The notes beneath the pieces are model-generated. The model was not told where the DNA came from. It worked only from the letters and a program-made list of their open reading frames with translations, and made no database searches. Positions 31,158 to 34,052 of a DNA stretch of 51,324 nucleotides are shown in pieces (within the stretch, counting starts at the first letter, position 1; every line of letters starts with the position of its first letter). The translations under genes were made by a program, and so were the position numbers. The stretch lies in sequence record OR896833.1; one strand, 5' to 3'. Source of the DNA: Escherichia phage WaterSpirit.

Positions 31158-31859
31158 GTGAAGAAAGAAATTGAAATCAGCTTTGAACAAATCGAACGAG
31201 AAACGTTTGTAGGTAATGCCCTAGCGACCGGAGGCCATTACCAGGCAGTTAAGTCAAATCAATATTTCAAAGTGACGGGCAACCGATATAACGGAAGCAA
31301 TACGCCGGACGTTGTGCGCGATTTATGGTCTACGCCATCAGAGCTTGTCGCATGGATGGAAAGCGAATATGGTGATTATGACATCGACGCGGCAGCAAGC
31401 AAAGATAATGCTGTATGCGAAAAATTCTACAGCAAGGAAACGAATTGCTTAAAGCGTTGGTGGGGTAGTAATAAGCACATCTGGCTTAATCCACCATACA
31501 GCAACATCACGCCATTCGTTAAGAAAGCGATTGAGCAGATGGAGCACAACAACCAGATCGACATGCTTTTACCATGCGACACATCAACAGGATGGTTTTA
31601 TGAAGCGCAACAGCACGCGGCGGAAATAATCTGGATCACTGGAGAAGTTTACAAAGAGGATGGAACAGAATATTCACGCACCGGACGCCTGGCGTTTACT
31701 TCCGCACTTACAGGTAAACCAGTACAGGGCAACAACAAAGGAAGCGTTATTTTCATCATGCGTGAACTGAAAGAAGGCGAGCATCAGAAAACGCGATACG
31801 TTAAAATCAGCGACATTTGCCCTTCCGTGGCAGAGCGTCGGGCAAGAAAGCGGAGTTAA
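31158..31859 (+). CDS. DNA N6-adenine methyltransferase (phage Dam-like)
   Basis: 233 aa, GTG start with RBS GAGGA; NPPY catalytic motif (WLNPPYSN). Confidence 0.65.
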   Translation: MKKEIEISFEQIERETFVGNALATGGHYQAVKSNQYFKVTGNRYNGSNTPDVVRDLWSTPSELVAWMESEYGDYDIDAAASKDNAVCEKFYSKETNCLKRWWGSNKHIWLNPPYSNITPFVKKAIEQMEHNNQIDMLLPCDTSTGWFYEAQQHAAEIIWITGEVYKEDGTEYSRTGRLAFTSALTGKPVQGNNKGSVIFIMRELKEGEHQKTRYVKISDICPSVAERRARKRS

Positions 31860-32608: not shown

Positions 32609-32708
32609 GGATGGTTATCATGTGGCGCTTGTTTGTTCTACCGTTACCCGTTATCATTGCGACCGCTATCATATATAGTATCGTAATGCACCAATAGGAG
32701 AAAAAATC

Positions 32709-33827
32709 ATGAGTCAGAGCAAGATAACGGACGAGCAATTCACGCATGAGCGATTAAAGGGTAAGAGCTATCGTCAGATTGCTGAGGAATACGGCCTTAA
32801 CGTTCGTAGCGTCGAGCGCCGAGCGGCACGACTGGCAAAACAGGGTAAAATATCAACCATCGGAACTCCTGGTTTTGGTGTTCACGGTGAATCGGTCATG
32901 ACCGACAAAGAAGGTAACGTGATCGTCAAATGGACAAAGACCAGTAAGGACAAAGAGCAACTGGAAGCGTTGATGCGTGCAGCTATGGACGCTTTTACCG
33001 AAGAATTGCCGCGAGTAGATCCGACACCGGAAGAAGCGAGCGAATACAGCGAAAGCCTTGCCCTTTACCCCGTTTTTGATATGCACCTGGGAGCTATGGC
33101 GCACAAACACGAATGCGGCGAGAATTGGGATACTTCCACGGCTGAGAAAGTAATGAATGACTTTTTCGATTATGCTGTGGCCTGTGCACCGTTCAGCGAG
33201 AAAGCAGTGCTACTGATTGGGGGTGACATGCTTCATAGTGACGGCCTGGAAGCAGTAACGCCTGCAAGCGGTCACGTCCTGGATCAAGATAGCCGATACG
33301 CAAAATTGGTTTACGTGGCAATCCGCGCCGTCCGTCGTGCCATTGAGTTGATGCTCAAAAAACACAAAGAAGTAGAGATCCAGATAATTGAGGGAAACCA
33401 TGACCAAAGCGGCATGATCTGGTTACGTGCAGCTATGGCGGCGGCATATGAAAAAGAGCCGCGCGTTTACGTTGATGTATCGCCGCGAGTGGTTCACCAT
33501 ACGCAGTACGGAAAAACCTTCCTTGCATATCATCACGGTCACACCGTCCGCAAGCCGGAAACATTGCTAATGATGTGCGCGGCAGACTGGCGGGAGGACT
33601 TCGGCAACTCAAAAACGATGTATGCGCACGTAGGGCATTTTCATCATCAGACTGTAACAGAAACATCGCTCGGCATTGTTGAAGTACATAGCACGATGGC
33701 AGCTAAAGACGCATACGCCGCGCGAGGCGGTTGGCGTTCCCGTCGCCGTGCTGCGGTTATCATTTACGACAAAGAACACGGCGAAATCGGAAGATTTATG
33801 TTTTATCCTGAGATGGCAGAGAAATAA
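32709..33827 (+). CDS. HTH domain fused to calcineurin-like metallophosphoesterase
   Basis: 372 aa; N-terminal HTH-like SYRQIAEEYGLNVRSVERR; phosphoesterase motifs DxH (FDMH), GD (GGDMLH), GNHD, and His-rich HHGH/HVGHFHH. Confidence 0.5.
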   Translation: MSQSKITDEQFTHERLKGKSYRQIAEEYGLNVRSVERRAARLAKQGKISTIGTPGFGVHGESVMTDKEGNVIVKWTKTSKDKEQLEALMRAAMDAFTEELPRVDPTPEEASEYSESLALYPVFDMHLGAMAHKHECGENWDTSTAEKVMNDFFDYAVACAPFSEKAVLLIGGDMLHSDGLEAVTPASGHVLDQDSRYAKLVYVAIRAVRRAIELMLKKHKEVEIQIIEGNHDQSGMIWLRAAMAAAYEKEPRVYVDVSPRVVHHTQYGKTFLAYHHGHTVRKPETLLMMCAADWREDFGNSKTMYAHVGHFHHQTVTETSLGIVEVHSTMAAKDAYAARGGWRSRRRAAVIIYDKEHGEIGRFMFYPEMAEK

Positions 33828-33998
33828 ATGAAAGTACGTTGCACCAGAAACACATCTAAGCAATTGCCTTATACCGTCGGCCTGATTTACACGGCTGTAG
33901 CAATTCCTGGCGGCATGTATGAGATCCGCGACGGGCAAGGCAGTGCAATAATCGCACCATTACACGGCTATTACCTGACTTTTTCACCAGCAGAATAA
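33828..33998 (+). CDS. Small hypothetical protein (56 aa), below ORF-track cutoff
   Basis: ATG immediately after upstream TAA; ends before strong terminator. Confidence 0.25.
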   Translation: MKVRCTRNTSKQLPYTVGLIYTAVAIPGGMYEIRDGQGSAIIAPLHGYYLTFSPAE

Positions 33999-34020
33999 CC
34001 ATATAAAACATTAACTTATA

Positions 34021-34052
34021 AGGAGGCTTAATTTACAAGCCTCCTTTTTTTT
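34021..34052 (+). terminator. Intrinsic terminator (AGGAGGCTT-loop-AAGCCTCCT + T8)
   Basis: 9-bp stem plus T-run. Confidence 0.75.

Follow-up and report, generated by a model that had tools for sequence, protein, structure and literature searches.

The DNA analyzed here (the window) is a stretch of 51,324 nucleotides from Escherichia phage WaterSpirit (sequence record OR896833.1), which is a T1-like coliphage. The ORF call and its translation give a gene that starts with an ATG at position 32709, stops at 33825–33827 and encodes 372 amino acids, exactly where an earlier note on this DNA had placed it. The features of the locus are listed in Table 1.

Table 1. Coordinates of the metallophosphoesterase gene, its encoded segments and flanking features in the window
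Feature	Position	Strand	Details
Dam-like gene	31158–31859		PHROG 111, E = 2.5e-84; before the MPE gene, with small ORFs between
Hydrophobic mini-ORF	32620–32697	+	25 codons (28 if the start is at 32611); ends 11 nt before the MPE start
Shine-Dalgarno sequence AGGAG	32696–32700	+	8 nt 5' of the MPE-gene ATG; shares bases with the mini-ORF stop codon; read from the sequence
HTH-metallophosphoesterase (MPE) gene	32709–33827	+	Complete, 372 aa plus stop; ortholog of T1 ST16 and Bas1 bas01_0050
Three-helix HTH, sigma-70 region 4/LuxR-GerE-like	32730–32840	+	Residues 8–44; Pfam matches, AlphaFold2 helices
Flexible linker	32841–32879	+	Residues 45–57; lower pLDDT in both models
Family-specific β-hairpin and long helix	32880–33005	+	Hairpin 58–78, helix 79–99, before the catalytic domain; AlphaFold2
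Calcineurin-like binuclear MPE domain	33048–33806	+	Residues 114–366
DUF7244/standalone SH3-like ORF	33828–33998	+	56 aa, abuts the MPE stop; Pfam DUF7244, E = 8.5e-28; PHROG 4788
Terminator-like hairpin and T-run	34020–34046	+	10-bp stem, then TTTTTTTATTT; ends the MPE/SH3 unit, ahead of the holin gene

The earlier note had described the product as an HTH joined to a calcineurin-like MPE domain, and both assignments were right, as indicated by Pfam matches to the HTH, three helices in the AlphaFold2 model, canonical MPE motifs and the MPE fold. The Pfam model Sigma70_r4_2 (PF08281) matches residues 11–41 with E = 7e-5 and 22.8 bits, slightly below its cut-off of 25.7, and the same stretch is matched by HTH_28, HTH_24, HTH_36, and HTH_23. 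AlphaFold2 places helices at residues 8–16, 21–28, and 32–44, with block-mean pLDDT values of 76 to 91. The segment quoted earlier, SYRQIAEEYGLNVRSVERR, corresponds to residues 20–38, and the predicted recognition helix is VRSVERRAARLAK. Residues 1–50 are basic (pI 10.1). When the family profile was compared with the PDB, the HTHs of GerE (E = 0.11) and RhlR (E = 0.53) were aligned, neither significantly.

An N-terminal extension of at least 40 residues is present in 143 of 144 full-length representatives of the family; an iterated HTH model detects 123 of the 144 N-termini, and HTH Pfam models of diverse kinds match relatives of the window protein. Of the two domains, the HTH is conserved least (22% identity, compared with 40% in the catalytic part). 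It is followed by a linker of variable length, the least conserved segment, in which pLDDT falls below 50 at residues 49–59 in the first model and block means are 54 to 68 in the second. The subsequent hairpin contains G69 and W75, each with a conservation of at least 94% among diverse representatives. The Campylobacter phage homologue F365_147, which has no HTH, begins at this hairpin and keeps the hairpin-helix.

The catalytic domain adopts the β-sandwich MPE fold and carries the five motifs that define the superfamily and supply the ligands of its two-metal center (DxH, GD, GNH[D/E], H, and GHxH). They occur in canonical order as D124-M-H126, G172-D173 (within GGDMLHSDG; GGDMLH is 171–176), G229-N-H-D232, H276-G-H278, and G309-H-F-H312-H313. 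In 143 representatives that are approximately 31 to 54% identical to the query, D124, H126, D173, N230, H231, H276, H310, and H312 are at least 95% conserved. The domain is thus, as judged from its residues, catalytically intact, with all metal ligands present, so the inactive domain lacking ligands that the earlier note had named as fatal to its proposal is not what is found. Conserved inserts specific to the family occur at 129–138 and 178–196. This clade is very divergent within the superfamily: Pfam PF00149 scores 13.2 bits (E = 0.12) against a gathering cut-off of 21.5, and only 13 of 67 relatives match it at E = 0.01 or better.

The same note had called the protein an unusual fusion, and this view does not hold, since proteins of this family as a rule combine an HTH with an MPE domain. 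The protein matches PHROG 704 over its full length (E = 2.8e-148; residues 4–370 against profile positions 2–389 of 390), and homologues were found in 2039 of 50,697 phage records, that is, in approximately 4% of sequenced phage genomes, with 4630 cluster representatives. With full-length homologues in thousands of phages, the ORF cannot be a chance one. The window protein is a PHROG 704 member with no feature to set it apart from T1 ST16, Bas1 bas01_0050 or BabyEgg CDS0072. It is 100% identical to the last of these (XNS41219), 57% identical to the T1 protein and 59% identical to the product of the syntenic bas01_0050 (E = 1e-167). The Drexlerviridae members of PHROG 704 share the full-length architecture and a position 5' of the holin-endolysin-spanin genes, and a published survey lists the gene in 508 of 522 Drexlerviridae. 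It is therefore a near-universal core gene in this family rather than a patchy accessory gene, and it is standard and already catalogued among T1-like phages. Other carriers of the gene are Jersey-like, Vibrio, and Rhodobacter phages as well as temperate coliphages.

Names for the family vary. The PHROG 704 name, “DNA repair exonuclease,” which BabyEgg CDS0072 also bears, is an automated label; some Jerseyvirus records carry “putative serine/threonine protein phosphatase,” and other records call homologues transcriptional regulators. As a point of annotation, “DNA repair exonuclease,” “Ser/Thr phosphatase,” “DNA polymerase II small subunit,” and “winged-helix protein” all denote one family. 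The gene is among the most persistent in T1-like phages, yet it has received only automated names.

Upstream, the order relative to the Dam-like gene is as the earlier note had it, except that small ORFs intervene. The last of them is conserved: in all eight Drexlerviridae compared, an ORF of 23 to 29 codons with a GRAVY of 1.4 to 1.9 ends 3 to 12 nt before the MPE start, despite diverged DNA, and its translation may be coupled to that of the MPE gene. As candidate autoregulatory operators, TTATCAT direct repeats and a promoter-like site at 32651–32679 were considered and rejected, because alignment with seven relatives places both inside this mini-ORF, where they are codons. Downstream, the SH3-like ORF, which is conserved in T1 and Bas1 and has been placed in the lysis module by others (PMC13164509), is followed by the lysis cassette. 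T1 has an annotated terminator directly 3' of ST16, and Sweeny has one between its dNMP kinase and holin genes.

Assignment of the gene to a replication module, as proposed in that note, applies loosely, as elsewhere the gene is found beside lysis genes, within an island of tail genes or as part of an early operon, depending on the lineage. It adjoins or directly precedes lysis cassettes in Drexlerviridae, in the Casjensviridae phage RcPutin, in metagenomic phages with GTA-type tail genes and in Vibrio phages. This variation in context, often with lysis genes at hand, was counted against the nuclease reading developed below. In Webervirus, the MPE gene is followed by genes for a HAD 3'-phosphatase (“PNK”) and a dNMP kinase and then by a terminator; these two genes are reported to be the commonest 3' neighbors in Drexlerviridae that lack the SH3 gene. 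In Campylobacter phage F365, a DNA ligase gene immediately precedes the homologue without HTH, and a Holliday-junction resolvase gene is close by. The Webervirus and F365 neighborhoods were counted in favor of the nuclease reading.

Functional information comes from the ortholog in Bas1, for which others have shown toxicity, tolerance of mutation and escape from a defense system, in a protein 59% identical to that of the window. Expression of bas01_0050 is toxic in E. coli, and missense or frameshift mutations in it allow Bas1 to escape DRT7/UG10; lambda escapers of DRT7 map to gam (DRT7 preprint). Literature searches on the genetics of T1-like phosphoesterases retrieved only this preprint. 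The papers on Metis and PUA-Cal-HAD were set aside as evidence on phage MPEs, since there the MPE is a host defense protein and the escapers lie in T-even denA, which makes them only indirectly relevant.

Of the three roles suggested in the earlier note, a DNA-directed nuclease fits best, because of the basic HTH, the high-ranking fold matches to SbcD, Mre11, and PolD-DP1, a weak PdeM sequence signal, and two observations on the Bas1 ortholog, namely its toxicity and its DRT7 escape mutations; a DNA-targeted phosphatase and a second-messenger phosphodiesterase fit less well. We propose an HTH-tethered, metal-dependent DNA nuclease for breakdown of host DNA or processing of DNA ends, a reading that we consider to be evenly balanced between right and wrong. 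The basic, fast-evolving three-helix HTH on its flexible linker would hold the enzyme on DNA, its probable substrate, and the binuclear MPE domain, together with the family-specific hairpin-helix and conserved loops, would cleave phosphodiester bonds. During infection, the enzyme would most likely attack the host chromosome, process DNA ends, or both, which could supply the phage with nucleotides and recombinogenic ends; this phage encodes no polymerase and relies on RecE/Erf/SSB for replication. Such a role would explain the toxicity in E. coli, the dispensability in the laboratory despite near-universal retention in T1-like phages, and the escape from DRT7/UG10 on loss. Also on this side, host-chromosome degradation in T1 is the subject of older papers, and a defense that senses m6-dAMP released by host-DNA breakdown has been reported to protect against a Tunavirinae phage.

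Several points weigh on the other side. Activities of another kind could likewise produce the toxicity and the DRT7 escape, the HTH may function in autoregulation or in contacts with proteins instead of holding the enzyme on its substrate, and the RecE-like and VRR-NUC nucleases that the phage already encodes could each accomplish host-DNA breakdown. Knowledge of the MPE substrate bears on what DRT7/UG10 senses and on the HTH tether as a general way to direct a promiscuous MPE to DNA. It possibly also bears on the breakdown of the host chromosome by T1-like phages, for which this survey found no genes assigned.

A bolder extension of the nuclease reading, which we regard as speculative and unlikely to hold as it stands, is that the protein would be the enzymatic answer of T1-like phages to the problem solved by Gam. 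The DNA-tethered nuclease would remodel ends or intermediates against RecBCD/SbcCD, or flood the cell with broken host DNA, and DRT7/UG10 would sense the perturbation. If true, the family would represent a novel type of enzymatic counter-defense or host-takeover factor, present in approximately 4% of sequenced phages.

A first rival reading is an end-healing enzyme, as opposed to a degradative nuclease, that would clear broken DNA or RNA of 2',3'-cyclic or 3'-phosphates or of blocked ends. It would act together with the HAD 3'-phosphatase of the phage to mend damage by the defense nucleases of the host. The MPE phosphatase domain of bacterial Pnkp performs such end healing. Several points speak for this role: in Webervirus and AAS23, the genes for the MPE, the HAD_PNKP phosphatase, and the dNMP kinase are grouped as one unit, the “PNK” of the window consists of the HAD phosphatase domain only, and the F365 homologue adjoins a ligase gene. 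PMC2190708 likewise credits MPE enzymes such as CthPnkp and lambda phosphatase with 2',3'-cyclic phosphodiesterase activity. Against it, the HAD phosphatase gene of the window lies more than 11 kb away, the near-identical BabyEgg annotation lists neither a ligase nor a polynucleotide kinase domain, and a repair enzyme would be expected neither to be toxic nor to confer escape from a defense on its loss. We judge the end-healing role to be rather improbable.

The protein could instead be a functional counterpart of lambda Gam in the narrower sense that it disables or bypasses destruction of linear phage DNA by RecBCD/SbcCD, for example through end remodeling, with DRT7/UG10 guarding this pathway. 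The two DRT7 escape loci, gam and bas01_0050, suggest this, as do the high ranks of SbcD and Mre11 among the fold neighbors and the lack of an annotated Gam-like gene in BabyEgg, in Bas1 and in the part of T1 that was examined. What unites the escape loci of lambda and Bas1 may be no more than a later effect, for example altered DNA intermediates; no evidence of contact with RecBCD was found, and any of the many unannotated small ORFs in these genomes could encode the true RecBCD inhibitor. Such a counterpart is therefore improbable.

It seems just as doubtful that the protein is primarily a transcription factor, with the HTH repressing its own, toxic gene or controlling the adjacent lysis or late genes, and with the MPE domain serving as a sensor or accessory. 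The likeness of the HTH to sigma-70 region 4 and LuxR, the location beside or just 5' of lysis cassettes in several lineages and the label “transcriptional regulator” in some records would agree with this. The pattern of conservation argues otherwise, as the catalytic residues are the most conserved and the HTH domain the least, and homologues without HTH exist. The frameshift mutants of the ortholog are viable, which excludes an essential late activator, and the upstream repeats are mini-ORF codons rather than operators.

It is very unlikely that the protein hydrolyzes cyclic nucleotide or oligonucleotide second messengers to counter CBASS, Pycsar, Thoeris or type III CRISPR, and we found no evidence in support of this role. 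Speaking against it are an HTH tether that has no obvious use in a small-molecule enzyme, toxicity of the ortholog in E. coli K-12, a loss that helps rather than hurts the phage against a defense, and near-universal rather than patchy occurrence; the profile comparison with E. coli CpdA was insignificant, and a PADLOC search returned no match. Least probable is a protein Ser/Thr/Tyr phosphatase like lambda NinI that acts on host or phage proteins, for which the shared superfamily and the Jerseyvirus label quoted above would speak. The PPP-type signature of such enzymes (GDxHG, GDxVDRG, and GNHE) is absent from the window protein.

We compared the protein with known MPE systems, with the nuclease reading in mind. 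A phmmer search of the PDB with the window protein returned only a chance nanobody match, and the family profile gave, besides weak HTH matches, a sole MPE match to “Nuclease MPE” at E = 3.5, which is not significant. With hhalign, the family profile aligned to single sequences of E. coli SbcD, CpdA, and YfcE with insignificant probabilities of 2 to 19%, a comparison too insensitive for ranking subfamilies. The ligase-associated DNA endonuclease PdeM was the only catalytic family found by sequence, with 16 of 67 members matching (best E = 1.6e-5). The window protein itself scores 15.9 bits against the PdeM model TIGR04123 (cut-off 150), over a 31-residue stretch around GNHD. This low score and the hhalign results were counted against the nuclease reading. 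The P. putida “Nuclease MPE” (PDB 6nvo) has the top identity among the structural matches, 23%. PdeM/Nuclease MPE, a ligase- and Lhr-associated enzyme characterized by Mn-dependent endonuclease activity on ssDNA, is a single-subunit MPE nuclease, as the window protein would be. The operon partners of PdeM, Lhr helicase and ATP-dependent ligase, are both unannotated in the near-identical BabyEgg genome, and the ligase association is paralleled only by the distant F365 homologue.

Mre11, SbcD, and T4 gp47 are 14 to 18% identical to the window protein, which lacks their capping domain and has the N-terminal HTH and hairpin-helix instead. A Rad50/SbcC-type ATPase partner is annotated neither in the BabyEgg genome nor in the T1, Bas1, Sweeny, Ent3, and mEp515 neighborhoods. 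Because both the capping domain and the Rad50 partner are absent, membership in the SbcD/Mre11 group was rejected, and the group was kept as the closest mechanistic analogue. The small subunit of PolD, DP1 (a 3'–5' proofreading exonuclease), and the eukaryotic polymerase B-subunits share 13% identity with the window protein, which has no OB-fold domain; T1-like phages encode no DNA polymerase, so a DP1-like role would have no polymerase partner.

Among phage proteins, Gp48 of the cluster A mycobacteriophage A10ZJ24 is an MPE reported to degrade host DNA in vivo and DNA in vitro. In this short protein, motif I begins at residue 10, which leaves no room for an HTH or a hairpin-helix. Compared at the level of the superfamily, Gp48 is a phage MPE that is toxic to the host, acts as a DNase, breaks down the host genome and is dispensable on one host, and it was counted as a precedent for the nuclease proposed here.

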